From Seison nebaliae (Eukaryota), in contig JALJEE010003034.1 in the NCBI GenBank assembly GCA_023231475.1, positions 1 to 64,000 on the forward strand: 64,000 nt of DNA, given 5' to 3'. Numbering within the stretch: the first letter of the stretch is position 1; every line of letters starts with the position of its first letter. The notes below the pieces were generated by a model. That model was not told the DNA's origin, did no database searches, and saw nothing but the letters and a program-made list of their open reading frames with translations. Below, in pieces: positions 3,952 to 63,246 of the stretch. Position numbers and translations under genes: made by a program.

Positions 3952-4844
3952 TTAATCGGACTCGGAATCGATGTCTGAATCGGAATCAAAATTTCCGAAT
4001 TTATTATTCTTCCGAATTTCATGCCGTTTCAATTGGAAATGGCGTCTTGGATCTTCTGTTAGTTCACTGTTCTCTATCGCATTCATTTCTTTCAATTTCC
4101 ATTCCAAATCTACTTCCCGTAATTCGACCTTATGTGAATTCGTTTCTCCCAACATCTGCCCTCCAATTAACTGTTTCTTCAATTCTCCATTCTTGTAATG
4201 AAATATTGCAGGAAGATTAGTAGGCGGAAAATTTGGTACACATGTTGACGCAATACTCCTAATAAATTTTGTTTCTTGGAATTTGGGTGCCAGTAAGTCA
4301 AAATATTTGTTAATCGCTTCACAAATCGGAATTCTTCCAACAAAAAATTAAGGAACATATAATTGAAATGGAATGAAAGACCAACCCATTTTCATACAAA
4401 TGAAGAACAACATTAACATCATCACCAGCATCATTCACTTGAGATTTGTAGTCTGATGCTGTAATTTGAATACAACGACCAAATCTCTTCCGTCTGTTAC
4501 TCTCCACCAATTCTTTCATTCTTTGTTGTCTAATTATTTCATCTATAAACTTTTAATCCAATTTAGGAGAATGTGTGAACTTGTACTTCAGAAATATTTC
4601 ATCGTCAATATCATCTTCATTCTCGTTTAATTCATCTAATTTCATCTCTTCCGGTTTCTTATCTAATTGAAGGGTCAAAATAACAGTTTGGGATTAAGGA
4701 CAAAATAGTTCTCCAACCATCCTTCGTATATTTCTTTACAGTTTCATCGATTATAGCTATGACATCTTCTTCTGTAATTCCTTTTTCTTTCTCTGGAATA
4801 ATTCCAAAACGACGCAGTTGATCATTCCATTCTGTATCTTCCAT
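3952..4844 (-). CDS. PDCL3: Phosducin-like protein 3 (VIAF/PhLP2A)
   Basis: EDTEWNDQLRRFGIIPEKE, FGRCIQITASDYKSQV..VVLHLY, C-terminal DSDSDIDSESD; several short introns. Confidence 0.85.
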
Positions 4845-15323: not shown

Positions 15324-16807
15324 ATGTTGTCAAAATTATTACGAAACACTTCTCTCTCACAATTTGCTTTACGTCGTACGTATGTGAACACGCAGGCAGA
15401 ACATAAAGGTCAAGTCATTGAGGATGTGGCAAAAGCTCAGACGTATGAGAAAGTTCTTTCTTTTACTTCCTAGAACGTCCTCTAATTATTCTAATATCAT
15501 TCTTTAGCAACATAAGGAACAATTGAAGAGAAATCAAACTGTTTCCGATTTCAGTGAATTAGTAAGAGATTTTTTGAATCCCAAAGACTTTTTCAACTCT
15601 TTGACTTCTCATGGAATCAACTTCTATACTGGTGTACCGGATTCTCTATTAAAAGGTTTGCATTAATTATTATTATTTGAATTGATGAAACTTTTATTTT
15701 TTGAAAAGATTTCTGTGCTTTTGTGACTGATAATGCTAAATCTCACATAATTGCGGTAAATGAAGGAGCCTCGATTGGATTAGGTATTGGCCATTATTTG
15801 AGTAGTGGAACTCCCGCATTAGTTTATATGCAGAACAGTGGATTGGGAAATGCTATTAATCCATTACTATCATTGGCATCACCTGATGTCTATTCAGTAC
15901 CATTATTATTATTGGTTGGATGGAGAGGAGAACCAGGTAAACGAGACGAACCACAACACAAACAACAAGGACAAGTAACTCCTGGATTATTGGCATCAAT
16001 GCATATTCCTTTTACTATTCTACCCGATTATAAAGAAGGTGCCGATCAAGCCATCGCTACAGCTTTCTCTCATATGAAATCGACAAATGGACCATATTGC
16101 TTCCTAGTCAAACGACAAACATTTTCACCTTATATTCTGAAAAATTCGAATAATGGAAAAAAGTTTAAATTCATTTTCCAATTAATTTCCTTCACAAACA
16201 AACATTTTCTAGATATGATATGACTCGAGAATCAGCACTTCAATCGATTATTGATTATTTAGGTAGACGAGATATTGTTGTTTGTACGACAGGTATGTTA
16301 TCGAGAGAATTATTCGAATATCGTCAACAACGTGATGAAGGACATGAGAAAGATTTTTTAACTGTCGGTGGAATGGGACATGCTTCAATGATCGCTTTAG
16401 GAATCGCTCGAGATAAACCAACTCGAAAGATCGTTTGTTTAGATGGAGATGGAGCATGTTTGATGCATATGGGAACACTGGCAACTATCGGAACGTCGAA
16501 AGCGAAAAATTTCAATCATATCATCATCAACAATGGAACTCATGATAGTGTGGGTGGTCAACCAACGGATGCCGGATTATCATCTGTTAATTTGAGCAAT
16601 GTCGCCAAATCGGTTGGTTATCGAAATGTTGTAAAAGTTTCAACAAAAGAAGAATTAATTGAAGCCACGAAGAAATTGAAGAGTTTAGAAGGACCGAATT
16701 TAATCGAAGTTCAAGTTTTAGGTGGACATCGAAAGAATTTGACAAGACCAAATCGTACTCCTGCTCAAAATAAACGTGATTTCATGCATTATGTAGCATT
16801 ATCATAA
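15324..16807 (+). CDS. aepY: Phosphonopyruvate decarboxylase (TPP-dependent), 4 exons
   Basis: FYTGVPDSLLKDF, VYMQNSGLGNAINPL, GWRGEPGKRDEPQH, DFLTVGGMGHAS, TPP motif DGDGACLMHMG..NNGTHDSVGGQ. Confidence 0.92.
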
Positions 16808-17182: not shown

Positions 17183-18924
17183 ATGGAATTTAATAAAATA
17201 TTTATGAAATTTTTCCTCTTTTCACTCTTCTATCTCACCGTTCATTCGAGTGAAGATATCGATTATAAAACTTATCTGCAAAAGTATGTGGATAAATATG
17301 ATCCGATGTTTGGATGGAAACATTTTGAAACAATCAAATTGGAAGATTATGATATTCATGTCATCAATATGACGTCACTTCAATGGATCGATGGTTTAAT
17401 TGAAATATTCTCGTTTAATCTCAATTTTCATTAGCTAGTTATAGTAATCGACATATCTGGTGGCATTTCGTCAACATTTTCGTTCCTCACAAACTTACGA
17501 GAAAAGAACATGTCTTCTACTTCCTCGACACGTATAAAAACACAGCAAAGTTCTTTAATCTTCATAAAAATTGAGAAAACTAAAATTTTTAAATTGAAAT
17601 AGAACTGTTGATCCTGCTAGTGATTTCGTAGCGTTAGTTGGCATGTTTGCCGTTGGATTAGAATGTATAGCTGTTGAAATCCAACAAATTCCGAATCAAC
17701 CAATAAAATATTCAGCTGATCCAAGTGGAAAATCGAGAGATGAAGACGACAATATTGGATGGGCATGGGCAGCTTTCCTTAACGATACGAAGACACCTGA
17801 AAAACTTATACATTTACCAGCTGTTAAAGCAGCCGTTCGTGGTATGGATACTACACAAAATTATTTAGAACAAACTTTTGGTTACAAACCGAATAAATTT
17901 TTCGTTGCTGGAGCATCAAAACGAGGATGGATGACTTGGTTAACGGCGGCAGTCGATGACCGAGTTTTCGCATTCTCCCCTATCGTTTTCGATCTATTAA
18001 ATATTACACATTCATTACATCATCATTATATGTCGATGAATGGAGGATGGACATTTGCTTTCGAACCGTATTGGTCTTGTAATATCATCAGTAATTTAGA
18101 TGATGAACGACAAGTTCGCATGGAGCAAATGGCCGACCCATTAAGTTCCATTTCGTTTCACTTCTTATTCTTTTTCTATCATTTAGGTTATCTGGATAAA
18201 TATGTCAATAAACCAAAATTCCTAATTACAACTGGGGGAGACGAATTCTTCATATTAGATGATCTTAAATTCTTCTGGAACTCTTTACCCGGAGACAAAT
18301 ATTTACGGTAATTATTAATTATTTTCATTTTTCATTTGAATCCTTTTCATTTTATTAGACGCATCCCAAATGCTGAACATACTTGTGTTGGTCATATCAT
18401 TAGTCTCTACTTCTCCCTAAGAACTTTCTTCCTCTCACTAGTCGAAGTTAAATTGCAATTTCGCGTTTTCGATTATATTTTTCTAGGAATTTCCCTTACC
18501 ACATCTTGATTGGAATGTGACGTATACGAGCAACGAAGCAACTATTGTGGCATGGATGGATCGAACACCTAATCAAGTGTCGATATATCATGCTCATACA
18601 TTAAACGATGGAAGGTTTCTAAATTATCCATTAATTTACTAATCGAAATAAATTATCAGACGAGATTTCCGTTTATTAGAATTGGGAAAGAAGGTCCATC
18701 CAGTAATTTGGTTGGAGAAACATGTTGAAATAAATAAACAAAATTTATATAAAGCAACATTGCCAATGCCACAAAAAGGATATGAAGCATTCTACTTTCA
18801 ATTCACTTTTGATTCACCTGATCCATCGGCTGATATCGAACTAACAACTCAAGCAGCTATCTTACCGAATTATTATCCACATGAAGATTGTCATGCTCTT
18901 GGATGTCAAGGACATTTAGTTTGA
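17183..18924 (+). CDS. Secreted PqaA/AprA-like alpha/beta-hydrolase family protein, 7 exons
   Basis: Signal peptide; NMTSLQW, WWH, QIPNQP, GASKRGWMTW, GDEFF, PNAEH motifs of the PhoPQ-activated pathogenicity-related family. Confidence 0.85.
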
Positions 18925-22711: not shown

Positions 22712-25011
22712 ATGCAGAAACGTTTCTCGCTACCATTCAACGATTCATTATTAGTCAATCGAACCTCTTCGAAGTTAATGAATAGGAAGAATGTCAAGGC
22801 ATTTCTCAGTTTCCGCAAAACGTTGAATCGTTCGAATGAAAGTGATTATGCAACTCGCCAATTCGACGAAGCGGCTATCAAATCATTAATTAGGAAACTT
22901 TCCATCGAGTCCAACAATGATCTATTGACTGCTCTTCAAAAGAAGAGTATGTATACGAAGTGTGTCTGTATAAAAAGGTTAATTTCCTCACCATTTAGTT
23001 TTGTTTCTGATTTCGTATTTGCATAAAAACAAATAAATGATTTCTTCAGAAATATTGCCATTCCTCCTTTTGTTTATTTATTCTAATTGTCTTTCCGTAT
23101 AATCAACAAATTGTTGTGTATTCAGGACACAAGATGGTCGATTGCAAATTTGTACAAAGAAGACATGGCCACATTTATTGTACTCGAGAATATTTCGATG
23201 GCCGGACATGGGCAAACGTGAACAATTGTTAACAGAACCTACATGTCGATATTCGTTCAATTGTACCGCTGAGAAATTGCTCTGTATCAATCCATATCAT
23301 TATCAAAGAAAAACAGATTTATTCAGTTGGAATTTCTATTTGAATTATTCATTAAATTATCTCATTCTTTCTTAGAAGTGAGAATTGCTCTAACTAATTC
23401 AACTGATAGGAATCACTTATTCAACATAACACAATATGATGATGAAAAAGAGAAAGAGACAAAAGTTCCATCAGATCAGATGGAAATGTCAAAACATTTA
23501 AAAGAGATCACTTCCTCCAAATTTGACAATACTCATCTCTTTCAAAATGACAATGACAGTTTGATGAGAACACGCAACTCTCCCACCATCTTACCACCAA
23601 CAATCAGATTGGCAGATGTCAACATCTCCAACACTGACCATAATATGACGACAGATAATAGTTCGAATGAGAGATCGTTATCCAACAATCAACAATCAAC
23701 AACAACCACTGTTCCCGGTACAATGATGGAGACGTTCATGGATGATATTGATCAATCTGTTTTAGCCGAATTCAATATGATAAAACCAACGACAAATTTA
23801 TTCACGTCAAAAATAAAAAATATTTTTATTAAAGAAAAAAAAGTTTCCAGTTCCAGTTGGGACGACGAAGGAGAAGTATCGAATGACGTTGAATTTTCCT
23901 TACTATCGTCTTATGATACTCCATCAATTGGCGTAAATACGAATGATCCAAAATCTGGATGTATAAACAATGAAGATGTGACGATGGATGATATAATGAA
24001 AGAATCAGTTGACACGCCATCAACCATCTATAACGATGATAATGAGACAATGACATTAACGCCCAACAGTTTAGTGACATCACCTCAAGAATATTTCGAC
24101 GAACAGTTGACTGATCAAGCGATTGATCAAGTGTTTTATGATGGCAATCTATTCAGCAATGAGGAATATGCGAAATGGTTACAAGTTATCTGGTATGAAG
24201 AGGACGACAATCCATATCATTCGATTAATGCCGGTGCTCAATCTATTCACATTTGTTATGATCAAGTATCTCCGTCGTCAACGATCGACGAACAAATTAT
24301 TAATATTCAAAATTTACAAAAAAAAACAATACATCAATCATCTTTTGGCTCATCTGTTCGATCATCAGGTAAAATGAATAATCTCCAAATCAATACGAAC
24401 AGTTTATCTGTCCAAAAGAAATTCGGTTTCTCATTTTCTCATTAAATTCTCATTCGAATAATCTTTGTTGTCTAAATGAAAAATTAGGAGCTGGTATCCG
24501 ATTGTCTAAAGTTCATCAAGACATAATGGTGGAAGTGTTAAGTGATTATCCGGTTTTCATTCAAAGTGTAACAATGAACATATTCTATGACTTACAACCT
24601 TCCACCGTCTGTAAAGTAGAGAAAGGTTTTCCTTCATTTAACAGTTGATACGAGAAAGAAGAATTAATGTTATTAACTTGTCATTATAGGCGCTCAACAT
24701 AAATTGTTCGACATGGAAACATTCCGACGACTAGTACTTACTTGTCATAATTTGAATGATCTTTATGTTCTTCTCAAATTACTTTCTATTCGCGTTTCTC
24801 CCGTCAAAGGATGGGGAAGAGATTATCCGTTAAAAACCTTAATAAATTCTTTCATAAAATTATTATTTTCTCATTTATTTCTGACAGACGTCCAAGAATT
24901 CTTCAATGTCCATTCTGGTTCCAATTAACGATACAGGGCCCATTAAAATGGTATGATGGATTAATGAGAGAAATGCGTCCGATGGGCTCATCCATTCATT
25001 CGGAAACATAG
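22712..25011 (+). CDS. Divergent Smad (MH1 + long linker + MH2)
   Basis: KRTQDGRLQICTKKTWPHLLYSRIFRWPD, CINPYHY; MH2 SIRVSPVKGWGRDY..CPFWFQL..GPLKWYD; ends IHSET. Confidence 0.88.
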
Positions 25012-25422: not shown

Positions 25423-26293
25423 TCAACAACTTAAAATTCGTTTAACTGAAAAATCAGTGAAATTCTTTCGAACGACCAAATGAGAATTCGATGAATCGTG
25501 ATTACTTCGATTTAATGTTTGTAATAAGGTAAAATAATTGATTGACGTAGTTGGATCTTGTGTTGATGTGTTGTTGGAAATATGTCGATTCTTCTCCGAA
25601 TATGTTAATTGATGAACATTTTCATAATATTGTCTTAATAGAATGTCAATTGGTTGTTCATATTGTTGGAAGTGTTTTTCTTCCGATGCCAATAAAATTT
25701 CATCCTCCAACTCATTTTTTTCTTGAACATTATTCATCTTAAATCTTTTCATTTCATTTCCATGCCCATTCCTTTTGTCATCAAGTTTGAATCGTTTCTT
25801 TCTTCTTAAAAAACTTCCATTGTCAAACATTTCTCCACATCTATTGATTTGGAAAGAAAGAATATTATCAATTTATATATAAAAAAATATTCTATTTTTT
25901 TTTTCAATATTTATTTTTTCTTTTTTCGAAAAATCGTGAATCAAAAGAAAGTTTTCTTATGAGAACAAACAAAAACATTTAGCACTACATTTCTTTTTCA
26001 AAAGACGAATTATCTAACTTTGGATGTAAAGTCCATAAACTTCCCTTTCCTGGTTGATTTGGTTTTCGTTGGACTTTACGAAAGCAATCATTGAACGAAA
26101 GGTTGTGACGCAACGAATTTTGCCATTTTTGTTTGTTATTCCGGTAATAAGGGAACCGTTCCATTATATACGAGTAAATTTCATTCAGTGACAACATTTT
26201 ACTTTTGCTCTCCTGTATGGCCATGGCGGTAAGTGCAATATAAGAATAGGCTGGTTTTTCTGCACCATAACTACTTTTGCTAGGTCTGGGCAT
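25423..26293 (-). CDS. FoxB: Forkhead box B transcription factor, 2 exons (intron 26018-25841)
   Basis: [59 protein letters not shown]-terminal eh1 motif FSVKRIL. Confidence 0.93.
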
Positions 26294-29200: not shown

Positions 29201-29319
29201 AATTAGAAAAAACATTAATTTGTCGGAGAAAAAGTCTATTTATAAAAAAAATTTACAGTTGATGTTAGGTGTTATATTTCAAAATTCGAAAGAAAGGAAA
29301 GGAGTAAAACTGTCGGAAT

Positions 29320-32051: not shown

Positions 32052-32579
32052 AATTCATATTTTTGAAAATTGTATTTTTCAATTTATTTCTAATGAGAAT
32101 TTCTACTGATAATTTTATTATATTTCATAGAATTTCACCTCTAACTTCTTATATTTAATTTCAATTTATGAGAATGATTTTTACACCATTATTCTGATAT
32201 ACATCCTTAAATGGTTTTCTAAAATAAATTTATGACTAATCTTCTTTGAGCTGGTCGATTTACATTTGAATGAAAGAAATATCACAGGTAAAGAACATAC
32301 GAAAAGTGGCTGTTCACAAATCGGCAAACAGTGTATTGTTGTGATGTAAACTTAAAGTTTCATCAAGTTTTATGATCGATCAACACCTCTGACTGTCTAT
32401 ATAATTTTAAATGAAATAAATTTGTCCTTTATGACGTAGATAATGAAATTATAAAAGTTAAAACTCTTCGACTACTTAATAAATTGGATAAAATAAAAAT
32501 TTTAAAGATTTCAATAATAACAAATTGGTGACTAATAAATTATTCGAATAAATTCGATAATAATAATCTTTCAGTAAAA

Positions 32580-35500
32580 ATGCCAGCTGCTGCGGTTCGA
32601 TTTTGGATTTATTTCAGAAATTTTTGAAGAATTAATTTTCAGGGCGAATATGTATGGTTGGAACCGAAGACGAAGGGAGAATTTGACGTTCCAATCGGTG
32701 CAAAAATACTTAGCGTGAAAGGAGGACAGATACGTCTGAAAGATGATAACGGGAAAGAACTTACTCTACCTGGAAACACCAAACTGAGACCGATGCATGT
32801 CACATCGGTTGATGGACTGGATGATATGATAAATTTAGGAGATCTACATGAAGAAGGAATTCTCCATAATTTACATATGAGATATGAAAATAATAAGATT
32901 TATGTTAGTAGTCTTCAATTGAAAGATCTTCTTATCTTTTCGTAATTAATTTCTATATTTCATAACAATTTCAATTTATAGACATATACTGGAAGTATTT
33001 TAGTTGCAGTGAATCCTTATAAAGACTTACCGATTTACTCGACTGATTTGATGAGGTCTTATCAGAATCGTGCATTTTCTGATATGCCACCACATGTATT
33101 TGCTATTGGAGATAATGCATATCAAGCAATGATGAGAAACCAAGTTAATCAATGTATAATTATTAGTGGGGAATCAGGTGCAGGTAAAACAGAAAGTACC
33201 AAATTTATTTTGAAGTTCTTAGCAACAGTGAGTGGAAGACATTCGTCAATTGAGAAACAAATTCTTGATGCCAATCCTATTATGGAAGCTTTCGGTAATG
33301 CGAAAACAATTCGAAATGACAATTCATCAAGATTCGGGAAATATATCGATATCCATTTCAATTTCAGTGGTGCAATCGAAGGTGCTAAAATAGATCAATA
33401 TCTTTTAGAAAAATCGAGAATCGTTCAACAAACGAAAGACGAAAGAAATTATCACATTTTCTATTGTATGTTGGCTGGCATGAGTGATTCGGAGAAGAAG
33501 AAATTGGGATTGACTAATCCTAAGAGTTACAAATATTTATCTGGTGGCAGTTTCGATTGTCATGGACGAAATGATAAGATTGATTATGAGGAGATTTTGG
33601 ATGCGTGCAAAACGTTGATGTTTTCTAAAACTGAAATTTTCGAGTTGATGAAAATTCTCGCTGGTTTACTTCATTTGGGAAATATTATTTATTCGAAGAA
33701 AATGGATGATAATTTGGAAGGCGCGACCATAACTGACAAATTATCATTAAATTCAGTGGCGACTATCTTCGATGTAAAGGTTGACGATTTATCTCAATCG
33801 TTGACACACAAAACAATTTTCACTGGAACTGATTCAGTCACTTCTCCACTACGTGTCGATCAAGCAATGGATGTACGAGATGCATTTGTCAAAGGAATAT
33901 ATGGAAAGATGTTTATTTGGATTATTGACAAGATTAATGAAGCGATTTATCGACCAACAAATCCTGATGATACGCGAGGTATCGGTGTTCTCGATATTTT
34001 TGGATTTGAGAATTTTGGAAAGAATTCATTCGAACAGATGTGCATCAATTATGCCAATGAGAATCTTCAACAATTTTTTGTTCGACATATTTTCAAATTA
34101 GAACAAACGATGTACGACAATGAAGGAATTTCTTGGAAAAACATCAAATTTACAGATAATCAACATATTTTAGATTTGATCGCGGAAAAACCATTAAATA
34201 TCATTGCTCTAGTTGATGAAGAAACCAAATTTCCTAAAGGAACCGATCTCACCATGTTAGAGAAATTACATTCAAATCACCAAAGAAATCCAGATTATTT
34301 GTTACCCAAATCTTCGGGAGACAAATCGTTCGGTATAAGACATTTCGCAGGAGATGTCTTCTATCATTCTGATGGTTAATTCATTTACTTTAGATTTTTC
34401 TATTTTAATTGAATTTAATTAATTTAAATAGGATTTCTTGATAAGAATCGAGATACATTCTCTCAAGATCTCCTATGGTTGTTACAATCGACCAAATCAT
34501 CATTTTTGAGAAAATTGTTTAGCAATGATTTAGACACAGTTAGACAAGATTTATAATAATGAATTAAATAATTATAATTTCTCCTCACTCTCCTCCTATA
34601 GTTGATTAACGATCCAACGGTTTCATTTACATTTCCTATGGGTGATTTAATCAATTAATTTTATGGAATTATTTAGGGAACAGAAACGAAAAGAAGAACG
34701 CCAACACTTGGTGCCCAATTCAAAAAATCTTTAGATGTTCTTATGACGAATTTATCAAAATGTCAACCATTTTTTGTTCGATGCGTAAAACCGAATGAAG
34801 TGAAGAAACCGATTGTTAATATTTCGAATTTTAATGGAAAAACAGAATTTTTAAAATAACTTCAAAGATTTTCGACAGAGAATTAGCCGTACGACAATTG
34901 AGATATTCGGGTATGATGGAAACTATTCGTGTACGTCGAGCTGGTTATCCTATCCGTCATACGTTTGCAGAATTTGTTGATCGATATCGGTTAATTTTTG
35001 AGTAACTCAAAAACTGATTATAATAATTGATTCGATCGTAGTATGTGTTGCGATGGAATTAATCCGAGTTTCAAAGAACGTGATTGTAAATCTGCATCCA
35101 AAAAGATATGTGTGAAAGTCCTAAAAAATGGAGATTATCAATTGGGAAAGACGAAAGTCTTTCTAAAAGTTTTTTTATTTTTCAATCGAAATGTTTTTAA
35201 TAATTCCCATTAGGATTCCCAAGATAGTTTAATGGAGAAAGCGAGAGAAGAAGCTATTGCACAAAAAATTGAAATTCTTCAACTTTTCATTAAAGCGTGG
35301 GCGATGAGAAAGATATTTCTCAAGTTAAATGGCGGTATGGAAATAATTCAAAATCACTGGAGAATGTATAAGATTAAAAGACAATTTGATAATGTGCAAA
35401 ATGGTTTTATGAAAGTCCAATCTATTTTCCATTCTAGAAATACAGCTCGAAGATACTTTACTTTGTTAATGAATCTGATTAAAATTCAAAGTCAATGTCG

Positions 35501-38500
35501 TGGATATTTAGCTCGTAGTAATGCCAGATTATCTTATCGAAGTTTATTAGAGTTACAAGCGGCAATCAAAGGACATTTAGTGCGAAAATATTATGGAAAA
35601 GAATTGAAACATTTAAAAAAATTAGAGGAATTAGAGTATAAGAAAGAAAACGATTTTGAGTTGAACAGATCGTCGATGGAGGAAAGCGAAGCATTAAGCA
35701 AAGCCGAAAAGTCTTTTTATAAAGGTGTCAAAGTTATCGATAAAGATCTGGAAGAATGGCAAATGGAAAATAAGAAAAAAACAGAGAAAGTTCAATTGTT
35801 GTTAGAATTGTTAAGCAGGAAACAAGATGGAGATAAAACGGTCAATAAAGAATTAAGTGAAATTTTTGGATTTTTGCAAAACACTCAAAATGACGACGAA
35901 GACAACGATGAGGAGGAAGAAGAAGAAATTGAAGAAATTGAAGAAATTAAACAATTCACTGCCGATGTTTCTGATCATTTATTTAAGAAGTTTGCCAAAA
36001 CCCATTTTGGAAAAGACGTAACATCGTCATACGAAAGAAGAATGATAAATAACTCACTTCTCAATTTGCAAGCGATGTGTGACAAAATTGGCGCTTTGGC
36101 CACTTGGATTAACATTTTAAGGTTCATGGGTGACATTTCTGATGTGGCAGAAGACACTCAGAAACTTAATGATGATCCGGCACCAATTATTACTCGAATT
36201 TATAGTACAATAGGAAGGAAGTTGAATGAAAAACATTTGATCGAAGCACAAAAATATATGGGGAAAATATCAACAGAGAAACCGAATAGACGTGCCACCA
36301 AACAAATAAATGCAACCGCTCAAGGTGATAATAAGAAAGTTCGTCAAGGAAATCCATTCATTCAAGAACGTGTAATGACGAATTTGGAGAAAGTTCATTT
36401 TATCACTTCGATGGGTATTTTGAGACCGGAATTGAGAGATGAGATCTATTGTCAAATTTGTAAACAATTAACTAAAAATCCTGATAAACGATCATTCGCT
36501 CGGGGTTGGGTGTTATTGACCATGTGTATATGTTGTTTCATTCCAACTGATCGATTTATTCTTTATTTGAGAAAATTCATAATGGACGGTCCTGTTGGAT
36601 ATCGGTCATTCTGTGAAGATCTTCTCAAACGAACATTCAAAAATGGTACAAGAGATCAACCATCGTCATATATTGAATTACATGCCGTTTGTACCAAAGA
36701 ACCAATTATTCTTCCAATTCAATTTGTAAATGGTCATTCAAAAACTTTGTACGCTGATTCTGCAAGTTCCGCTAAAGAAATATGTACTGCTCTGTGTGAT
36801 AAAATAGGATTAGTTGATCGCTTTGGTTTTGCACTTTACATCAGCATGGATGGAAGCAAATATTCCATTGGTAATGGTTGCAATCATGTCATGGATATAA
36901 TCTCGAAAGCGGAACAAGCCACCAAAGAAAAGGGTTCAGGTGAAGCTACAGCGGCGTGGAATATTTTATTTAGAAAAGAGATATTCAAACCATGGCATAG
37001 TGCATCGGACGATCCAATTTCAACGAATTTAATTTATGAACAAGTTTTCATTTGAATTAAAAATTAAAAAATTATTTTAAAAAAGATCGTTCGTGGTGTT
37101 AAATATGGAGAATACTCGTTTGATAGTGACCAAGAATTCGCTAAGATGGCCGCACAACAACTTTACATTGACATTGGAAGTGGTTACTAAAATTCTGATT
37201 ATTAAAATAGAATAAAATTTTAATTTACATTTTCATTTCATAATTTAGAGTTTGATTCGAAGAGATTATTAGAAATCTTACCAGAATTAATACCAAATAA
37301 AGCCAGTAAAACTTCCGTGAGAGACTTGAGTAAGTGGAAAACATTAATCACGGATGAATTCAAAAAAGGAGATTTTGTTTTAAACGATGTTGGCATTGAT
37401 CGAACAAAAGAAGATATTGTTAACTTTGCCAAATTTAAATGGCCATTATTATTCTCCAGATTTGAGGATGCACATCAGTTAAATTTAAATATCTCTTCGA
37501 TCAATTCAACCCTTTAATTCTTCAACAGAATTTCCGGCCCTAAACTATTAAAAAAACAAGTGAAACTTGCAATAAATTGGACGGGAATTTATTTCATTGA
37601 CGATCGAGAACAGGTGCTTAAAGAGATTCCTTACGCAGAAATAACTGGAATCTCATCTTCCGAGTTTGATGCCTTTTCATAATTTAAAAAATTTGATATT
37701 TCTTTTATATAGATCGACAAGGTTCAATTACAATTTCATATTTCATGTATTGTGAATGAAGGAAATTTTTATTATTATTAGAATTAATCGAATCTTTACA
37801 CAAAACTTGAGCATCTTTACCGTTTCTGGTGATCAATATGTCTTCGAAATTTATTATGCAAATGAATTACGAGAATTAATTGTGATGTTTCTCGAAGGAT
37901 TGCGTGAAAGATCCAGATATCTCATAGCAATTAAAGATTCTGATTCTTCAGATGGTTTTCAATTTCCTTCGCAATTCTCCAAATATAAATGTCGTTTTAG
38001 TTGAAGATATTCCTAATCCTCCTAAAGATCTTTTAAATTTCCGTAGGGGAGATCTTATTATAATGCAAATAGATAACGATGGTGAATTGAAATTGAAAAA
38101 AAATTCATGGACCAAAGGAGAACACGAGAGAACTAAAGAAACCGGTTTGAAATATATTTGATGATATTCCTCACTTTTTCCATTTAGGCAATTTTCATAG
38201 TTCCGCTTTCTATCGCGTTCCAACAATGATGAAACCGGCACCTGAAATCTTAAAACAATTTGCAATACAATCCATGTCTCAAACGGACACTAAAAATGGG
38301 AAACGAAATAATGATTATGAAATTAATGAAGAGGATTTACGAGAGCCATATACATTAGAAAATTTCAGTTATGAATATTTCAGGTTAATAGTTTTATTGT
38401 AAATGTGGAATTGATTCAATAAATTTATTGGTTTTGGACCATAGACCACCAGTGAAAACGACATCATTTGGTAGGAGACATGTTGAGAAATTGTCGATGC

Positions 38501-40107
38501 ATCAAAGAGATCCATTAAGGAATTCGTTGTTGAAGAAAATAAACGCGAAACAATCGTTAAATGATAAAGGAATTGATATATTTGAATCAATTCTTCAATA
38601 TTGTGGTGATATATCGACGAAGGCTGAAAGGAAATCGGTTGAATTGACTGACGAAATATTTAGTGTACCATTAGAAAATGAATTGATAAGAGATGAGATG
38701 TATTGTCAAATGATGAAGCAATTGACTAATAACAAAAGTATTACAAGTGAAGAACGAGCTTGGGAGTTGTTATATTTGGCAACAGGAATGATGTTACCAT
38801 CAACTTTAGTAGAGAAGGAGTTGGCGACATTCCTTAAATCGAGACCAAAAGAGAAAATTGCAAATGAATGTTTCCAACGGTTGTTAAATGTAAAACGGTC
38901 TCCCTTTAAATTGTCATTAGAAGAATCATGAAAAACTGTTTTTAGATTAGGTAACAGAAAGTTCCCACCTCATCTTACAGAAGTCGAAGCAATTCAGGAT
39001 GGAAGTTACATAATGTATCACAAAGTCTTCTTCCCTAATGACAAAGATGAAGAGTTTGATGTAACGAGTACGACTCGAGCGAAAGATATTTCATCACAAT
39101 TAGTTGACAAATTGAATCTAGCATCAACTGAAGGATTCTCGTTATTCATCAAGGTGAAAGATAAAGTCATAAGCATCCCAAGAAATGACTATTTTTTTGA
39201 TTTCGTTCGACATCTAACCGATTTCATGAAAGGTAATTCGAACGAAAAGATCGCTTATATGATATTTTTCATGAAGAAACTTTGGATTAATGTGTCACCG
39301 GATGAAGATACGGTTGCCGATAGAAACTTTTACTTTTATCAGGTTCTCCTCATAATAATCTAATAGTTATTAAATATAAAATGAACAAAAGGAACGACCA
39401 AAATATTTGAAAGGACATCATAATGCGACGGAAGAAGATGTCATTAAACTTGGAGTATTATTATATAGAATCAATTCGAAAGAAGAAGAATTTTTTGGTG
39501 ATACAATCGAAGATAAGAAAGATGATTTCATTCCAAAAAATTACCAACGTCAAAAGAAAATTGGGCAATGGATAAAGTTAATCGAACAGAAATATGAATC
39601 TCTTCAAAACATGTCAAAGTCAGAAGCAAAATCAGAATTCGTTCGAGTTCTATCGACAATGTCAACGTTCGGTTGTGCATTTTTTGATGCAAAAGTTATT
39701 TTTTATTAATTTATTTAATTATGGAAATATTGTATCATTGTTAAGATAAGAGGACAATCATATGGATTACCTTCTATTATCCTTCTTGGAATTAATAGTT
39801 CTGGTCTGATGATAATGGATGCGAAAGATAATGTTATTCTTCATTTATAAATTATTCTAAATATTCGTCTTTTTCAGAGTTTATTAGCGGAATATCCGTT
39901 TACCAAAATTCTCAGTTGGAAATCGTCCAGTAGCAAATTTGTTCTGTCAGTAAAAGAATCAAGAGAAGAAAGGAAATTAACTCTTGAAACACGATTGGTA
40001 AATATTTTTAATTGACGTGTCATTAATGTTATTACATTTTCTAGGGTTATCGAATTGATGATTTATTGACTTCCTATGTCAGTAAACTGATGAATACCCA
40101 GAAATAG
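32580..40107 (+). CDS. MYO7: Unconventional myosin VII (motor-IQ-MyTH4-FERM-SH3-MyTH4-FERM), ~22 exons
   Basis: [25 protein letters not shown] repeats, two [16 protein letters not shown] MyTH4 domains, FERM ending [12 protein letters not shown]. Confidence 0.93.
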
Positions 40108-41176: not shown

Positions 41177-41658
41177 ATGAGCAAAAAAGAGGTTAAATTT
41201 TAAATTTATCTAGGAAATTAAGCTCGATTCCTAATGTCTAAAGATCTTAGAATGTTATCGGAAGTTGATGCGCGTAAAATACAATGTGTTCAAGAATGAT
41301 GTTAAATCTCAAAAAAGTTAATCTGAAACCTAAATTTTCTTTTCTGAAATTGTTTTTCTTCTACAAATCAGTTTTACAAAAGAAAATTCAAGAGGAAATA
41401 AAAAACCAGCAAAAGGGAGACGATGTAGAATTGTTAATAAAGAAATGGAATAATGTGGCAGAGATTATGAATAAATCCGTCATACAATTGGAAACTTTAG
41501 ACAATGGGAAATACAGTTATTTCTTTCAATTTCGCATTAACTAGACTGGGCGAGTTAATTTATTTACAAATGTAGAAGCACATATTCGACCGGAACAATT
41601 GAACAATAACGCTCCTTTCCGAAACGAGGACGGTTCGTGTATGGACAAGGAGAAGTGA
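41177..41658 (+). CDS. LYRM7: LYR-motif complex III assembly factor (LYRM7/MZM1-like), 4 exons
   Basis: Spliced MSKKEILECYRKLMRVKYNVFKNDVKSQKILQKKIQEEIKN..VAEIMNKSVIQ..HIRPEQLNNNAPF matches the LYRM7 pattern (VFKND, SVIQ). Confidence 0.75.
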
Positions 41659-42583: not shown

Positions 42584-45500
42584 TCATTCAGTCTTTTTCT
42601 CATTTTCTATCAAGTGAAATTTGAATAGCTGCTTCAAATTGCCTTCACTCACTAATCTTGCTATATCAATATTGGGACGGGAATCTGTCATCGGCGTCGT
42701 CGTTGCTTTGTCACTAGGTGACGGTTTGGGCGTCAACGGTGACATGGACGGTCGAACGATACTCTCATGATCAATAGAGTTTCCCTTCAATGCTTCTCCT
42801 TCAACTGAACTGGTTAGATGGTGCTCGTTCTTAACATTATTCTCCTTGTCCATCGAGCTCATTGATCCTTCATTCTTCTTTATGTCCGCGTCCGATTCCA
42901 TCACAACAGATACGGAACTGCATGAAATGAAACTCTTAACCAAATTTTTACTTTTATCTAAGCTTAGATGGTCGTCGTATAATTTCCTTGTTTTATTTTC
43001 TTTGCAGTTTGGATATAATCCACTTCTCGTCAAGTTAGTTCGCTTCTCTAATCCTGCACGATTCTCCAATGAAGAAGGTTCATAGATCTTAACTCGAGGA
43101 TCATCAGAATTATTAAGATCTGATGGATATTTCACTACTGGAGATGCTTCTTTCAATTTTGGACAATTATAATTTCTCGAATTGATATCAGATCGTTTCC
43201 TATTTATATTATCCTTCAAAATAAACGACAGACGTTTATAGAAACATAATAATTTGTAAATCGACTAACTTCATCTTTGAATCGCAAATCGACATCACCT
43301 GTAAAATTTGATTTCGTCTCTGGAATATCTTGAATAAAAAGGAGATTAATTCGATAAGAATCGAGAAGAATATGATAACACTAACTTGCCATCAAATGTT
43401 TCTTGTCTGTTAATTTTGATCGATCAACAATTGGAGTTGGAAGTAATCCTCCTTTTCGACTATCAATCATTTTCATTCTATTCTCATAACATTCAGGTAT
43501 TGTATCAATTAATGGTTGAAGATGTGCCTTCAACACATTCCCCACTTCATTGTCACATGCACGAGGTAATTGTTTAGTTGCTGAGAGAACAACATTGTTC
43601 GGTATTGAGGTAATTTTTGGGAAATTGACATTAGTGAAACAATTATTTTCTGTTGATGGAAAAGGAAATTTTATTGTTGTTGATGTTGTTGTTGCTGTTG
43701 TTGTTGTTAGTATTGGTATAATATCTTCTTTTTTAGCTATTGAAATTTTATAAGTATTTTTAATTCCATTCGCTTGTGAAAATAGTGGACGGTTTGGATT
43801 GGATTTACTATATCTCGATTCATATTCTTCTTCTTTCAATTGAATTGTGAAAATATTATTCATTTTATCTTGATTCTTCAAATCCTCACTCTCCATCTCT
43901 TTACGACACTTGAAAAAAAAAAGATAAAAATTGTATTAGAGAAAAACATATTGGGAAGACTTAAATCTAACTAATTCCATAGCATTCTGTAAATATTTTG
44001 GGATATCTTTGTGAGAGAATCGACAAACCGATCCAGAACGACATCCAATTCGAGACAAATGATAAAATTTACAAGGGAAGTCTCCATGTAAGAATGGACA
44101 AGCATCGCCCTTGTTGCATTGGTTCGTCAAATAGAATTTACAAACTGTTAAACTTTTCTTCTGTTCATTCTCCATATTCACATCACCATCGTCATCCGGT
44201 CCTTTAGATGAGATGTCATGAGAGAAGGTACAGGCATCTCCTTTCGTACATTTCCCACTAAAGAAATATCGACACTTCACTCGATTCTCTTCACGCTTCT
44301 TCTTCATTTCTATATATAACTGACTTTTCATTTGTTGTTTCAATTGTTTTGCCGATATCAAACTTGCCTTTTGACGGACACCATATACATCCTGAAAAAG
44401 ATATGATAGAAGAAAATGATAATCGAATGGAAACTTGTTGATTATTATCATGTGGATGAATTTGTTTATTCGCCTTCTTATTCTATAAAAGGAGAATGAA
44501 CAAAAGAAATTAATAAAATTTGATGGAAGAAGAATAAAAACGATTATAAGTTCCTCATTATTAGTTAAGTCTTCTTCATCATTCTCTTCCAAGTTAATGA
44601 ATGAATAATCATTTCTATTGACGTCATCATCTTCTCGTGCTAGTAAGGAATCTTTTGATTCGATCGAATCTAACAACGCGTCAAATGTTATCATTTGTTC
44701 ATTATCTATCGCTTCCTGTTTACGTCGTCTAATGAATTCATATTTCAATCGTCTCTGCTTCGTCAATGGCATCAAACCATCCATCCCTATCCTCCTTTCC
44801 TTATTCTGTGATTTTTTTTTATGTAATCTCTCTGATTTAACACTTCTGTGCGAATATCTAATACCTAAAGTGACATCCTGTTTCTTAATTAGAATTTTGT
44901 TCTATGAATATTGTTATTGTTCTGAAAAATTTTGAAATATTCTTTTTCGATTTCAATTTAATAAACAATTCCTTTACACATTCAATATAAATTAGAATTC
45001 TAATATTTTCTACTTTTAAACAATTTCACTCCCATCGAAAAAATATTATATTATAATATCCCAAATGATTTTACATTCTTTAATCAATTCATATAACTAA
45101 ACTATTCATGAAAAATACTATTGTACCTCCTTTAACAAAATTTTTCTATTTTCAAATTGATTCTATTCCATCTCCTATGTATCACGAGATCGAAATCATC
45201 ATTTTAATAATCGAAATCTTTTTTTTTAATATGAATTGAAGAAACTGTTAACCTGTGTCTTCGGATTTGGTAATGGCCGTTTCCGCAAATGCTTATAAGG
45301 TTTGGATGATGGATCTATGATAGAAGAACGAATAAATTTACATTAATTACTACCAATTATGATAAAGATGAAACCAATATTATTGTTATTAATCGTTTTA
45401 TGTCGATGTTTATTATTCAATTTACTTTTCTCCTCTTTCTTCTTCTGAAAAGTATTGTTGTTAGTCGTCGTAATAGTCGTCTTCGATACATTGGCACCGT

Positions 45501-48142: not shown

Positions 48143-48180
48143 AATTATTATTCTTAATCGAATTTTTAAGAGAGACATTG

Positions 48181-49775: not shown

Positions 49776-50707
49776 TTATTTTGTATCAACCAACAGAATT
49801 TTCTTTTGACTTTTCATCAATTCTTCATTCACCTTCTTCACATACTCAGTCATTTCATCTTTTATCTATTCAACATGAAATGGCAATGAATACATCAATC
49901 AATTCAAGAATCAAATTTAACGAGATTATTCAAAGCAAAAATTAAATCTTTCGACTCTTCTTTCTCCTTTCGACGTATTTGCTTATGAAATGAATTATGT
50001 TGTGTTCGCAAATCGACAATTGCCTTGTCCGCCAGATTTTTCGCATTTCCACTCAATCGCAATCTGTGTTCGCGTGTCAATCTATCATCATGACCAATTA
50101 TTGAGAATTAGCAATCGATTAAAAATGCGAACCGTTGAACAGGAATAAATATACTTGTCTTATCTTGTTGAGGATGGACGGATAACGATGAATTTTCAAT
50201 TGATCGTACTACTTCTGGAATATACTTCAACAAAGAAAATCATAAATTAATTAAACGATCCAAAAATGAACTTGAGGAAAAGAATTCATATCAACTACAA
50301 TAGTTTTCTCATCAAATTTATTGATCGATGAAAAATTTCCTAATTTCTCCAGTTTATTACCAATTTTCACATTAAAATTTTCGAGAACATCTTCAATGAT
50401 TGATACGTGTAATTAGTAAAAAGTGAAAATATAACTGGTATCCAATCGAAGCGGTAATTTCTTGTCTAAATCCATCTTCAATCGATTCACAACGTCCGTC
50501 ATATTCCTCTTGAATTTATCGAAATCGATTACGGAGTTCAATTCATCATTAGATAATGTTATTTTCTTTATATTCTTCTGACGCTTCTCTCAAATCGAAC
50601 AAAGAGGGAAATTAAATCATTACGAAAATGAATGAAAACTTGCTAAATAATTAGATGTGGACAAAGGTTGGACCGGTACGACAAAAAAACTTGTCGCTTG
50701 TCGACAT
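49776..50707 (-). CDS. MRRF: Mitochondrial ribosome recycling factor (absent from ORF track; N-terminus uncertain)
   Basis: Spliced exons give NMTDVVNRLKMDL..VVDMNSFPQ|YIPEVVRSIENSSLSVHPQQDKTSIFIPVQR|LTREHRLRLSGNAK. Confidence 0.8.
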
Positions 50708-52284
50708 AATTGTCCTAATAAAATTTTCTTTAAATTTTGCATTTCTATCTGATAATTTTAAGAATATGTTTTACAAAATTGTTATGTTTCCGTTTGTTCA
50801 TATAAAAAATTAAAATCTCTCTGATCAAGAATCAAGAGAACCACTAACTCAAATTCGGCAAAGTAGTTGATAAGGCTTTCGAATTAACTGTGTGGAATGG
50901 AAATCGACATAAAGAACATGTCGAATTAATTCACGAGGTTCAACAATCAATCTTAAAACTACAAATGCTTAACAAGTAATTTTACGACTCGAACTATTCT
51001 TAAAAAGTTTAAAAAATTATTGAATATTGATATATCAATCATTTTGTCTCATTTCCGAACTTCTTCCTGTTTATACCTAATTTTTAGTAATCAATTAAAA
51101 TTATTATTAGTTAAAATTGTTTAAACTTGATAATAACAAATTGTTATTAACAATCATTAAAAATGTTTTTGTAAAATATATCAAGTACTCCAAACGCTTT
51201 ATTGTAATCATGTTTAGTTTGAAAATTTGTATATTACAGTATGGTAGATTAATAATGATAATAATTGATGATATTCTTCAACTTCACAATTTTAATTCAT
51301 TGGATTACAGAATCTTATTCTTTATCTCCTTCCTTCTTTATTATTATTTTTAATTTATCTAATAAGAGTGAAGTTAAGTTGTTGGAAATTTAGTATTATG
51401 GACATAAGAATAAACATTCGATTTATTTTGTAATTAAGAAGTTTCCCTGGGAACTGGAATTAAATAGGTACAATTTATACGATAACATGAAACTTCTATG
51501 GTTGAAAGTTACTGTATTTTGTAAAGAAAGAGAAAACTTCTTCAACCTTCAAATGTGGCAGCAGAATGAATGCAATAAAGAACAGGAATTGCATTTTTAT
51601 TCAGTTTTTTTATTCAGACAGCTATTCTTTTAAAAGAGGAAAATGTGATATTTCCCTCAATTTCTTATGAATAATCATTTTGTGAAACTTATCAGTTACT
51701 TTCTATTTCGATTGGAATTTGTAATGATCGAAATAAATGATGATTCGCTGTGAACAGCAGAACATCTTCAGTTTTACATGTTCTTTTTTTTCTTTATGAA
51801 GAGAATGAAATAGCTGAAGATGATTTCTTTATTTCCTAAAAAAATAAAAAAATTTAATAAATATAAATTGCATTTAATGGATTAAATTGATTTTATTAAT
51901 ATGTATTAACACATTATACTTATAGATAATAATATTTGAAATGATTTCAAATATTGATTAAATAATCGTATTTAAACAGTCAAATTTCTATGTGATCTTT
52001 GAACTGTTTTAAAAAAAATATGTAGAATAAGTGATGATAATAAGAATTAAACATGAGATATTTTTCGTATTATTTTTCTTTTTTTTGTTTGTTTTCTTTT
52101 TCTTTTATTTTCTCATTTACTTAAAGTCTCGTTGAATTTATCTATTTCATTTTTTGTTTCAACATTTCTAGTATTGTTTTAAAATAATTTCATTCTCATT
52201 TGGACATTCTTCGTTGTTTTGTATAAACTAATTGGAAGCGGATAAATTTAGTAAGTTCAATTTCACTCCAACTATCACATCAAA

Positions 52285-53391
52285 ATGAGTTCCCAAGAAC
52301 TTTCAAAATTGTTAAAGACAGTCAGCAAAAATGTTGAACAATCACCATCAAAAGTTCATTTGAATTTCTCAATTAATTAAAATGGATTTTATTGAAATTT
52401 AGATTTCGGTTATTGGTACCGGTTCGGTTGGTATGGCTTGTGCATTCGCCATTGCTTGTCGAGAGATCAGCACAGAAATAGCATTAGTCGATATTCGAGA
52501 TGATGTTGTCAAAGGAGAATTGTACGACATGCAACATGGAAGTGTGTTTATTGGAAGTCCGAAAATGGTTGCCGGTTCTGATTATTCGATTACAAAAGGA
52601 TCGAAAATTTGTGTCATTACGGGTGGATTGAGACAAATGGAAGGAGAGACTCGACTCCAATTGGTAGCAAAGAATACGGAATTATTCAAAAAGATTGTTC
52701 CCGATTTGTTGAAATATTCTCCAAATGCACTCATTTTCATCATTTCCAATCCGTGTGATATTCTCGCTTATGTCTCGTGGAAGATGACAGGAATTCCCAT
52801 CAATCGAGTTTTCAGTTCCGGAACGAATTTAGACTCTGCGAGATTCCGTTTCTTTATCGCTGAGAAGTTGGGTACAGTGGCGAATAATGTGGAAGGATTA
52901 ATTCTAGGAGAACATGGAGATAATTCAGTTGCTTGTTGGTCATCAGTCACTGTTGGAAATGCTCATTTATTGTCGATCGATTCAAAAGCTGGATCATCCG
53001 ATTTGTTGAAGAATGTCCACAAAGAAACAATTGATGCAGCTTATGAAGTCATCAAATTGAAAAGTTTTATTTTTCTTTTGAATATTTTAAGAAAATAAAA
53101 TAAAATTATTCAGAATACACATCATGGGCAATCGGATTATCTTGTGCTGATATTTGTGAATGTATCATCAAAGATCGACGTCAAGTTCGACCAATGGGAA
53201 CGAATGTGAAAGGTATGTATGGAATAAAGGATGATGTGTTTATGAGTGTTCCATGTGTCATTGGAGCGAATGGTGTCACTCAAATTATCAATCAACCATT
53301 GACACAAGAAGAGATTAGTGGACTACAGAAATGCTCAAAAGTTCTTCTCGAAATTCAGAAAGGATTGGACATTCCCAACATGAAGAAATAA
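52285..53391 (+). CDS. LDH: L-lactate dehydrogenase, 3 exons
   Basis: GTGSVG, DMQHGS, GLRQMEGETRLQL, SNPCD, SGTNLDSARFR, LGEHGD, YTSWAIGLS. Confidence 0.93.
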
Positions 53392-53969: not shown

Positions 53970-54731
53970 CTAAATGACGGATGGTGTTAAGAGGTTCCTC
54001 AATTCCGAATCTTTCATACAACCCTCAAAGAATTCTTGTTCAGAAAGGAAACCATCAGCTGTCTTGTCCATTTCACCAAATATTTCATCAACTCGTTCTT
54101 CTGGTTTTGTTGCTCCCTTCATTTCACTTTCTCCCATCAATTCATAAATAGCCTGTAAAAGTAATTTTAATGTGGACAATTCGAATTGAATGGAACTTTA
54201 ATAATAATCGCCAATTCCTTCTTATCGACTTTTCCATTCGAATCGATATCATACATTTTGAATGCCCATTTTAATTTCATTTCAATCTCATTCCCACATG
54301 TGATCGATATGGCGATAAGGAATTCACTAAAATCTAAAATTAATCGAATATTTCAAATAAAATTTCAGATTAAAATTAATAATGGATAAAATATTTAAAT
54401 TAAAATGTTTTAATTTGAAGTCAAACCTATTTTATTCGACTCATCTGTATCGAATGTACGAAAGACATGTTCGGTGAATTTTTCGACTTTGCCATGAGGA
54501 TAGAATTGTTTGTAAACTTCGTAGAATTTCTTCTTTGTCAATTTGCCACTCGGACAATCAGCCTTTAAAGATGGAATAAGTGGATTGGAAGAGAAATGAA
54601 ATAAAAAGATTAACGAGAAAACCACGATGCCAATTCAACACTTCCGATCGATTGAATCCAGTTGCTTGTTCCAGTAGTGTAATTTCTGCTTCACTTAACG
54701 GTGAACTGCCTTTCGAATGCTTCTGTCCCAT
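53970..54731 (-). CDS. Neuronal calcium sensor (NCS/neurocalcin family), 4 exons
   Basis: MGQKHSK myristoylation motif, [47 protein letters not shown]. Confidence 0.92.
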
Positions 54732-59203: not shown

Positions 59204-60709
59204 ATGTTCGGTGTGATACGCACATTGGCATCATCTCAGTTAGTTGCGCAATTGCAACGATGCATGGGCGTAGGCGTAGTATTGGAGGGAAAAAATTCCG
59301 TAAAATTTTTTTATTCTTATCTCTTTTATATCATCATGAAATTGGCCGCTTGCACTGGTGGCGAAACATTCAATTGTGTTTTTATGCCAGTTGTCTACTG
59401 GTTCTGGCAAAGTGATGTGGCACGTCGAATGTGTCTGATATGGGGCTCTCTCATGTACATTGGACAAGCGATGAAAGATATATTGAAAATACCTCGACCA
59501 CAAACGCCAATCGTGCATCATCTGGAAAAGGCGTTAAACTTTTGCAATTTATTTTTGTTTATTCTTTTGTGTAGTTATGTGACGGAATATGGTATGCCGT
59601 CCACACATGCCATCGTAGCAATTTGTATCCCATATACACTCTACTACTACTCCTTACAAATAATGGAAGTTTTTTTTTTTGAATTTCACACATGATACTT
59701 AATATTTAGTAGTTGAATGAATTCATCTTTTGTGGAATTTTGATATTCTGGTCTGTATCAACTTGTATTTCTCGTGTATATCTGGGAATGCATTCCGTTC
59801 TCGTTAATTAAATTTCTTTTCTTCGTTCATTAAATTATTATTAAATATTTATTATATGAAAAAAAGGATGTGATAATAGGTAGTCTATTGGCATGGAGTG
59901 GAACTTATATGTTGATCGATAGTAAATTAATTAATTTCATTGAAGACGAATTGATAATGAATAAATGCTTATCCATGTCATTGGTTACATTGACGACGTG
60001 CATTTTCTTGTGTCTTATTTATCCTCAATTGAATGAGAAGAATTATGAGCAATTCATCGAATTGAAAGAAGATGATATAGAAATCAATTCAGAAACAATT
60101 ACAATTGATATGAATAAGAAATGTTGTGACACTAAATCGAAAAGAATTTGGAATAGTGCTCGTAGTGATGCATTTCTCATAATATCTGTCATCTGCGGCA
60201 TTATTGTAGGTTGTCAATTTTTTTATATCTTCAACAACAAAACTGACTTTATTCAATTTAATAAAAATCTCAATAACACCAACAACATCATCATCAATAA
60301 CACCAACAACATCATCATCAATAACAAAAACAACGGAGACAATCAAATACATTTATTCTTCATTAAATTAATTATTGGATGTCTAATATTGTTCATCGCT
60401 CGTGAAGGAAGTAAGATATTGTTTCTACGTCTCCCTTATACCATCTACTCGACGACATCTCTCCACAGAACGTTATTTTGTGGTACAGATAAGATTGTGG
60501 ATCAATTAAGAAAATATAACAATATCTCGCAACAAATCACATCAATTCCTATGACTATCATTCCGTTGACGATTGAGAATTACAAGAAACAATTCTTCCC
60601 TGAATTATTCTATAAATTTTCTACCTATTTTCTTGTCTCATTTGTCGTTGTATATATTTGCCCTCAAATATTTACTTATATCGAAACGATTTCTCTCAAT
60701 CTCAGCTGA
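59204..60709 (+). CDS. SGPP: Sphingosine-1-phosphate phosphatase (PAP2 family); start uncertain
   Basis: GQAMKDILKIPRP, EYGMPSTHA, ISRVYLGMHSVLDV, SARSD, multiple TM segments. Confidence 0.88.
60271..60326 (+). repeat. 24-nt in-frame tandem duplication (NNTNNIII)x2 in SGPP
   Basis: caataacaccaacaacatcatcat is repeated exactly. Confidence 0.85.
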
Positions 60710-61923: not shown

Positions 61924-63246
61924 ATGCGGAAAAGTGTGTTGAATGACGATATAGAGATCGATGGAAAACGATCTGTTTCTAGAAAAGAGTTCTTAGTTAT
62001 GGAACAAGATAAATTACAGGAAGCTGCAAGAAAAGGTGATATTGTAAAATTGAATAAGATTATGGAAAGAGAATGCAACACACCTGGTGAATTACAGCGA
62101 ACTCCAGTTCACTGGGCGGCATTATATGGTCGTTTAGCAGCTCTCCAACTTTTAATTTCGAGAGGGTTTCAATAAACCTCATTTATATTAGAATGTTCAT
62201 AATTTTCTATTCTATTCTAGAGGTGAACCGGAAAGAGTTGATATTCATGGAAATTCTGCCTTACATTTAGCCGTGATTGGCAATCATATTGATTGCATTC
62301 ATTACTTGATTAAATTCAATATAAATATGTGGTTGATTAATAACAAATCAAAAACTGCTCTAGCTTTAGCATCCGAACAACAATCAACGGATGTTATTCT
62401 GATGTTATTTAGTGTTTAAATTACTCCGTTTGCACAGGTCATTCACATTTTGGATGATGCAATGATGGAGAAACAACGACTTTATCCTAAACATTCAAGA
62501 AAAGATCGAGAGAAAGCAGTAGAACGTCACAAGAGACGAATGGTGGCCTTACAAAAATTTGAAAAGAAATATCAGAAAAGTATTTCCCAAAGGAGTACGA
62601 TTAGTCGAAATACATTTCCGGACAATATACAGCAAAGTCCTCAACCTATTGAACGCCCCCCCGAAAGAAGTTACCGAAAAATTGTAATTATCCTAAATTT
62701 TTTGCTCACTCAAAAATAAAAATTTTTTAGTGTTCCATAGTCGGATAATTGTTGCACCAGGAAACGATGGTCAATTACGAGGTCAAATGAAGTATGATAA
62801 TTCAATTTCAATGAAATCTGTTTCATTACTTTTATCCTCAGAATAATTTTCAAATTATTTAGAATCGACCGATGGTAATCCGAACGACATCACATGAGAA
62901 AAAAGAATTATATTCCCCATCAACAACTGATTATAAAGAAAACGATTCTATTTTAAGTTCGGCGGAAGAAACTGAAGAAGATGATGGAGAAGACGAGAAT
63001 GATGATAACGATGAATCTTCAATCGATGATCGTTTTCGTCCTCGACAAACAATTACAAGCATAGTCACTAAAGATCAGCCACAAATAATTAATAATCGTC
63101 AATCTGTCGAATATATTCGTCAACAAGAGAGGATATCCAATAATCATATTGGAATAAATTATCCGCAAAATATTATCAACAATCCACCGCCAATAACATA
63201 TGTCGATGATCTTCAAGATAAAGAATCGATTTCAACTTATTTCTAA
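61924..63246 (+). CDS. SANS/ANKS4B-like ankyrin-repeat scaffold lacking a SAM domain
   Basis: QEAARKGD..TPVHWAALYGRLAALQLLISRGGEPERVDIHGNSALHLA..MWLINN..PKHSRKDREKA matches the USH1G N-terminus; ends STYF. Confidence 0.72.

Follow-up and report, generated by a model that had tools for sequence, protein, structure and literature searches.

Animal 5' splice sites (donors) usually read GTA or GTG. In Entamoeba, GUUUGU donors are found in 88-90% of introns, together with a U1 small nuclear RNA (snRNA) arm AACAAAC and a normal U6 (Roy and Bowser, bioRxiv 10.1101/2022.06.08.495308). A switch from A to U at intron position +4 in Saccharomycotina has been linked to METTL16 and SNRNP27K, with no change in U1 or U6 sequence (PMC10581693), and in Fritillaria borealis 95% of introns do not follow the GT-AG rule, with the U1 arm strictly kept and the N6-methyladenosine (m6A) pattern changed (PMC13326754). 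Here we describe a 64-kb stretch of DNA (the window, meaning the whole stretch analyzed) from the rotifer Seison nebaliae, in which a myosin VII gene and its neighbors carry donors that nearly all read GTT. In our view the 5' splice signal of this intron-rich animal has undergone a real, strong and lineage-specific change.

The rotifer Seison is epizoic; its genome is compact (~44-46 Mb, 32% GC) and lacks ~35% of metazoan BUSCO genes (PMC8351084). The window was assigned to Seison nebaliae (Rotifera) by the largest myosin exon (32982-34373), which matches, at 100% identity, NCBI protein SNEBB_000798 (P0002), a 2138-aa protein whose Pfam domains (Myosin_VII_N, motor, IQ, and two MyTH4-FERM units) mark it as myosin VII. 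Exact spliced mapping of this protein, with other intron ends allowed at a penalty, resolved the gene (32580..40107, forward strand) into 22 exons and 21 GT-AG introns of 42-78 nt, a structure also backed by exon identity and the Pfam matches. All 21 introns carry an in-frame stop or break the frame and must therefore be removed. The base at intron position +3 is T in 19, C in one (38898), and A in one (39998); the probability of 19/21 GTT by chance is 2.6e-5. G occupies +5 in 5 of the 21. A preliminary description, made from the letters alone, had arrived at identical numbers. All introns treated here are predictions based on protein alignment and reading frame; sequencing runs X1 and X2 over the window are DNA-like, without intron-like joints, and runs X6 and X7 gave no contigs there.

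To test each myosin donor, all GT/GC-AG alternatives that lie within 45 nt and preserve the frame were scored against 15 homologs (the Seison paralog and 14 proteins from outside Seison); the annotated donor ranked first in 20 of 21 introns. The remaining case is intron 1 (32595..32642, donor GTTCGA), which rests on the spliced map; homologs do not pin its donor, which ranks 5, with better scores from GC donors only and no non-GTT GT alternative. Intron 2 (32904..32981, donor GTTAGT) is placed by the spliced map, homolog scoring, and a comparison of intron positions. Map and homolog scoring together place introns 3-8 (34375..35213; donors at 34375, 34539, 34620, 34815, 34990, and 35169), introns 9-16 (37044..38444; 37044, 37183, 37478, 37664, 37722, 37955, 38145, and 38384), and introns 18-20 (39343..39877; 39343, 39695, and 39833), all GTT, and likewise the two exceptions, intron 17 (38898..38945, GTCTCC) and intron 21 (39998..40044, GTAAAT). 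An in-frame GTAACT 12 nt inside intron 7 and an in-frame GTAAAT 15 nt inside intron 16 both scored below the GTT donors. A spliced aligner that gives +3 no weight, run with a profile of 11 non-Seison myosins, identified six introns in the motor region; each of them is GTT, and five of the six donors of introns 3-8 were recovered.

The public myosin model contains microexons of 18 nt (34602-34619) and 9 nt (37713-37721), the former skipped by the profile of other animals' myosins. Both may be optional, and the flanking donors are GTT in either case.

Outside the myosin gene, introns were predicted with a gene finder in which GT was the sole donor rule; it was trained partly on myosin, and +3 was scored as intron background (T 0.46). 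It returned 98 introns, 75 of them GTT (57/72 in models of at least 600 nt). A filtered set, drawn from 15 listed gene models and limited to introns 38-70 nt long whose two exons each reach at least 45 nt, comprised 49 introns with T45, C3, and A1 at +3 (45/49 GTT, P=1.3e-11). Of the 32 introns that have no other in-frame GT to choose within 24 nt, 28 were GTT (P=1.2e-6). Junctions in the FoxB, NCS, SMAD, and PqaA genes were examined by hand, and there the GTT donors restore what we take to be conserved protein motifs; three ab initio errors checked in this way had each replaced or missed a GTT donor.

Combining the 21 myosin introns with these 49 gave 70 donors, with T64, C4, A2, and G0 at +3. 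Purines are depleted at this position (2/70, P=7e-15). A is found in 2/70 against a background of 35% (P=4e-11), so that it is avoided, beyond a mere lack of preference, and C falls below T further than composition predicts (4 versus 64, P=0.002). For comparison, T follows GT at 41.6% of the 5457 GT sites in the window and makes up 45.9% of intron interiors. Beyond the GT itself, +3 carries 0.75 bits of information and every other position at most 0.23. The last exon base is G in 27 and A in 29 of 70, and exon position -2 is A in 34/70. Positions +4 to +8 are near background: +4 is A30, T25, C10, and G5, +5 is G in 15/70, above its 8% background (P=4e-4), and +6 is T30 and G0.

These introns have the GT...AG ends and pyrimidine-leaning YAG acceptor of the major (U2-type) class (T43, C11, A15, and G1 at acceptor position -3; T-rich at -8 to -5), and they depart from its GTRAG, purine-at-+3 donor consensus. 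AAG acceptors are frequent (15/70). No branch-point motif rose above shuffles in the window introns. Minor (U12-type) donors follow RTATCCTT, which none of the 70 carries. The Seison introns are ordinary short GT-AG introns. Their length, AT content, and 3' site probably define them across the intron, GUU being the sole strong 5' mark.

Set beside the known systems, the Seison signal resembles that of Entamoeba in its near-fixed U at +3 (64/70), its GT-AG introns, and its AT-rich genome. Entamoeba, however, is an amoeba that has few introns, a strict GUUUGU, and a fixed branch point, whereas Seison is an intron-rich animal in which only +3 is fixed and the strict motif fails (T in 25 of 70 at +4, G in 15 at +5, T in 30 at +6). 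We therefore do not file Seison with the Entamoeba type, since the strict motif is absent and a matching U1 change is so far a prediction, although the two work alike at +3. Saccharomycotina also show a lineage-wide change at one donor position, but at the U6-facing +4, which is mixed in Seison; a +4U type of change, as with loss of METTL16 or SNRNP27K, was rejected because the donors show no preference for U there (A30, T25 of 70). Fritillaria borealis shares with Seison an animal setting, a transformed 5' splice signal, and the major spliceosome, but Seison keeps GT-AG and alters +3.

Shifted-register 5' splice sites, reportedly described by Roca and Krainer in 2009, begin with GTT as in Seison. 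A canonical U1 arm pairing one base out of register, with sites of the GUU-A-A-G-U type, would yield GTT as the outcome of a +1 shift, and the preliminary description had spoken of a "shifted" code. Such sites require G at +6, which none of the 64 GTT donors has (0/64, below background, P=0.003), and T at +3 is unlinked to a missing G at -1 (P=0.2). The shift is refuted for the window, and we give it virtually no credence.

To place the signal among related animals, a metagenome scan that yielded 80 myosin loci was used, and the motor region of 21 myosin VII-like loci was aligned. Six loci form a clade adjoining two Seison myosins (support 87/78, not firm), and one of the six shares 93-96% identity with proteins of Rotaria and Adineta, which identifies the clade as bdelloids. 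Its 43 introns, which occupy only 9 positions and are not independent, have A34, T8, and G1 at +3 (79% GTA), with the eight GTT donors confined to 2 of the 9 positions. Bdelloid introns match those of Seison in composition (interiors A 0.35, T 0.46), in length (mostly 45-80 nt), and in a weak +5G (16/43); they differ in their A at +3 and in a strong exon -2A (37/43 versus 34/70 in Seison). GTT in 64/70 Seison introns against these 43 gives a Fisher P of 2e-15. A further clade of three loci (L102, L134, and L136; best matches 77%) has A5, G1, and T1 in 7 donors, and ten other animal loci have A24, C2, G2, and T0 in 28, counts that leave out L104 (no intron) and L152 (one GTG intron on a long branch). 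At the one shared position, that of myosin intron 2, the donor is GTT in Seison and GTA or GTG in each of the other loci (10/10).

Because bdelloids match Seison in composition and intron length yet use A at +3, AT-richness and intron size do not explain GTT. The preliminary description had argued as much of AT-richness. It could still be held that there is no special recognizer and that drift or annotation bias in short, AT-rich introns yields GTT: T follows GT at 42% of window sites, bdelloids themselves use GTT at 8/43, and the introns are predictions. This is largely refuted, and we give it a very slim chance, since the matched bdelloid introns are 79% GTA, A at +3 lies far below background, two methods without +3 information recover GTT, and each of the three ab initio errors checked manually concerned a GTT donor, replaced or overlooked. 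Even taken together, artifact and register shift have only a slight probability. The switch probably arose on the Seison line after its split from bdelloids, as judged from the bdelloid and other loci compared here.

The motor exon of the window gene (1393 nt, 32982-34374) lacks seven bdelloid intron positions (profile columns 196-429), and a column-45 intron is absent as well, so that either Seison lost introns or bdelloids gained them. The two Seison myosin VII proteins (P0002 and P0004) group together, the window copy on a branch of 0.8 versus 0.17.

The donor pattern supports the requirement for a recognizer that disfavors A at +3. To that extent the re-coded recognition proposed in the preliminary description stands; the agent of change, whether U1, U6, or a protein, is something we infer. 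We consider it an even question whether the 5' splice code of Seison was rewritten in its RNA over thousands of introns, through a U1 (or U6) with a changed base that reads GUU and rejects GUA. Our tentative choice, held with somewhat less than even confidence, is that the GTT donors are due to a U1 snRNA whose position 6, which lies opposite intron +3 and is usually a pseudouridine, has become A. In standard pairing geometry U1 position 6 faces +3. An A partner at this point would pair best with U, tolerate C, and exclude purines. This is the order observed, and it agrees better with A than with G as the partner. That A would sit in U1, the GTT pattern would be genome-wide in Seison (its extent beyond the single 64-kb window sampled being extrapolated), and the change would have arisen on the Seison line after the bdelloid split. 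With the canonical U1 arm, taken from an invertebrate U1 gene (L096), mean duplex energies are -2.2 kcal/mol for Seison donors, -4.9 for bdelloids, and -6.9 for the 28 other animal donors.

Several observations weigh against a changed U1. An A6 arm brings the Seison mean to -3.0 kcal/mol, which is better but still weak, and the test is partly circular. U1 was unchanged when donors changed in Saccharomycotina (PMC10581693) and Fritillaria (PMC13326754), and the Entamoeba precedent joins an intron-poor genome to a strict six-base donor, whereas Seison is intron-rich with a loose one. Further, ab initio prediction supplied 49 of the 70 introns, and four of these 49 are doubtful (23806, 19003, 26389, and 53726; three are GTC), although they were kept in the counts.

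The window holds no snRNA gene by Rfam search (gathering threshold or E<=1). Comparison of runs X1, X2, X4, and X6 with the invertebrate U1 gene gave one contig each in X1, X2, and X4, covering the first 58 U1 bases and 9 upstream. There are 12 differences in 67 positions, one of them at U1 position 25. The depth of this contig (5.4 and 16, against ~15 and 27 on the window) and its upstream 30-mer (57% GC) fit a host or contaminant, though it may also be a Seison sequence at half depth. Its conventional-looking second stem-loop might be listed against a changed Seison U1, yet we take it for neither side.

An alternative places selection of the site in U6, with U1 pairing relaxed, bypassed, or lost: the G of the U6 ACAGA box would pair with +3U as G-U, or would itself have become A. 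ACAGA spans intron positions +2 to +6 and places its G opposite +3 (bioRxiv 10.1101/2022.06.08.495308), pairing of the Seison donors is very weak with both U1 arms, and there is precedent in Cyanidioschyzon merolae, for which loss of the U1 small nuclear ribonucleoprotein has been reported (cited in bioRxiv 10.1101/2022.06.08.495308) and in which the U6 box has changed (PMC10581693). However, an unchanged G should accept C as it does U, which disagrees with the depletion of C; other animals combine this U6 G with +3A; and +4A (30/70), +5G (15/70), and +6U (30/70) amount to little complementarity to U6. We therefore consider a U6-led choice unlikely, and complete bypass of U1 pairing, the extreme form of RNA-level recoding, very unlikely indeed.

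A different possibility leaves the snRNA sequences unchanged and lets an altered protein (U1-C, Luc7, SNRNP27K, Prp8, or a U-binding factor) or an snRNA modification accept +3U. Donors have changed without a change in snRNA sequence both in yeasts (METTL16 and SNRNP27K; PMC10581693) and in Fritillaria (m6A pattern; PMC13326754), and the absence of ~35% of metazoan BUSCO genes from Seison (PMC8351084) is in keeping with such a route. Against this, +4, not +3, is where proteins and m6A are known to exert their effects (PMC10581693), and the canonical arm pairs best with +3A, so that 2/70 could be reached only if a protein strongly overrode that arm. We put this explanation short of even, close behind a changed U1.

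The GTT donor change in Seison has apparently not been reported before. A 2023 Hydrobiologia paper, said to deal with syndermatan genome annotation, could contain a donor logo. In the literature on Seison introns, rotifer splice donors, the syndermatan spliceosome, and atypical donors, as far as it was accessible, we found no account of this signal, and the accessible parts of PMC8351084 (with its supplement 1), PMC10125929, PMC12690905, PMC13161344, PMC10639083, and PMC10599564 contain nothing on Seison donors. Were a U1 (or U6) with a changed base the cause, Seison would be the first animal found with a re-coded snRNA recognition arm, as far as the literature searched extends. Coevolution of donors and snRNA has so far been demonstrated in protists with few introns, in which only a small number of sites has to change. 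In Seison nearly all donors went from A to U at +3 despite many introns (21 in one myosin gene), which would mean that a splice code can be rewritten across many introns. Its bdelloid relatives retained A, and some GTT is tolerated in them already; they offer a close comparison for finding the cause. GTT donors also matter for gene prediction in seisonids.

The pattern recurs in genes on both strands of the window. On the reverse strand, GTT donors occupy the first three introns of a phosducin-like gene (3955..4844, 3/3), the introns of a CLASP_N/TOG-domain gene (5533..8306, 8/8), the filtered introns of a CCCH zinc-finger gene (42584..44981, 5/5), and the introns of a ribosome-recycling-factor-like gene (49866..50742, 5/5). 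On the forward strand they are found in a PAP2-family gene (59204..60709, filtered introns 3/3), an ankyrin-repeat gene (61924..63246, 4/4), and a SMAD (MH1/MH2) gene (22712..25011; GTT at 22978, 23326, 24426, 24644, and 24829), whose predicted GTC intron at 23806 sits in open frame and is doubtful. The gene-by-gene counts of the preliminary description were reproduced for six further genes: a thiamine pyrophosphate (TPP) enzyme, aepY-like (15324..16807, forward, 3/3); a PhoPQ_related, PqaA-like gene (17204..18924, forward, 5/6, with GTA at 18308 and an in-frame 42-nt intron at 18145); lactate dehydrogenase (LDH; 52285..53391, forward, 2/2); an EF-hand, NCS-like gene (53970..54731, reverse, 3/3, at 54614, 54426, and 54196); a LYRM7-like gene (41177..41658, forward, 3/3, at 41192, 41317, and 41516); and a Forkhead, FoxB-like gene (1/1), whose hand-checked 178-nt intron (25841..26018, reverse) has its donor, GTTAGA, at 26018. 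Its overall count of 37/40 GTT stands for the 39 introns that were checked, 36 of which are GTT; the AKH gene supplying the remaining one was not located in the window. The name LYRM7 is presumptive, and that gene has no Pfam match.

The TPP enzyme contains introns and matches Pfam TPP_enzyme_N/C. We take it to be of the phosphonopyruvate decarboxylase type, following the name in the preliminary description, and an intron-bearing gene of this kind hints at phosphonate synthesis in a rotifer.

In wider scans, the U1 motif had no match in viral contigs and matched 94 stretches in prokaryote assemblies. Nine of 19 such stretches scanned are real eukaryotic U1 genes that lie on contaminating contigs. 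Assemblies with such genes include L007, L011, L018, L030, L034, L062, and L076, and tandem arrays occur among them; U6 exceeded the cutoff in 0/5 prokaryote assemblies carrying contaminant U1. Within the window, positions 29300-30320 hold short dispersed and inverted repeats with no coding signal and resemble a small non-autonomous element. Low-depth contigs in runs X1 and X2, ~85% identical over exons under window positions 30500-50400, point to a second lineage or a close relative.

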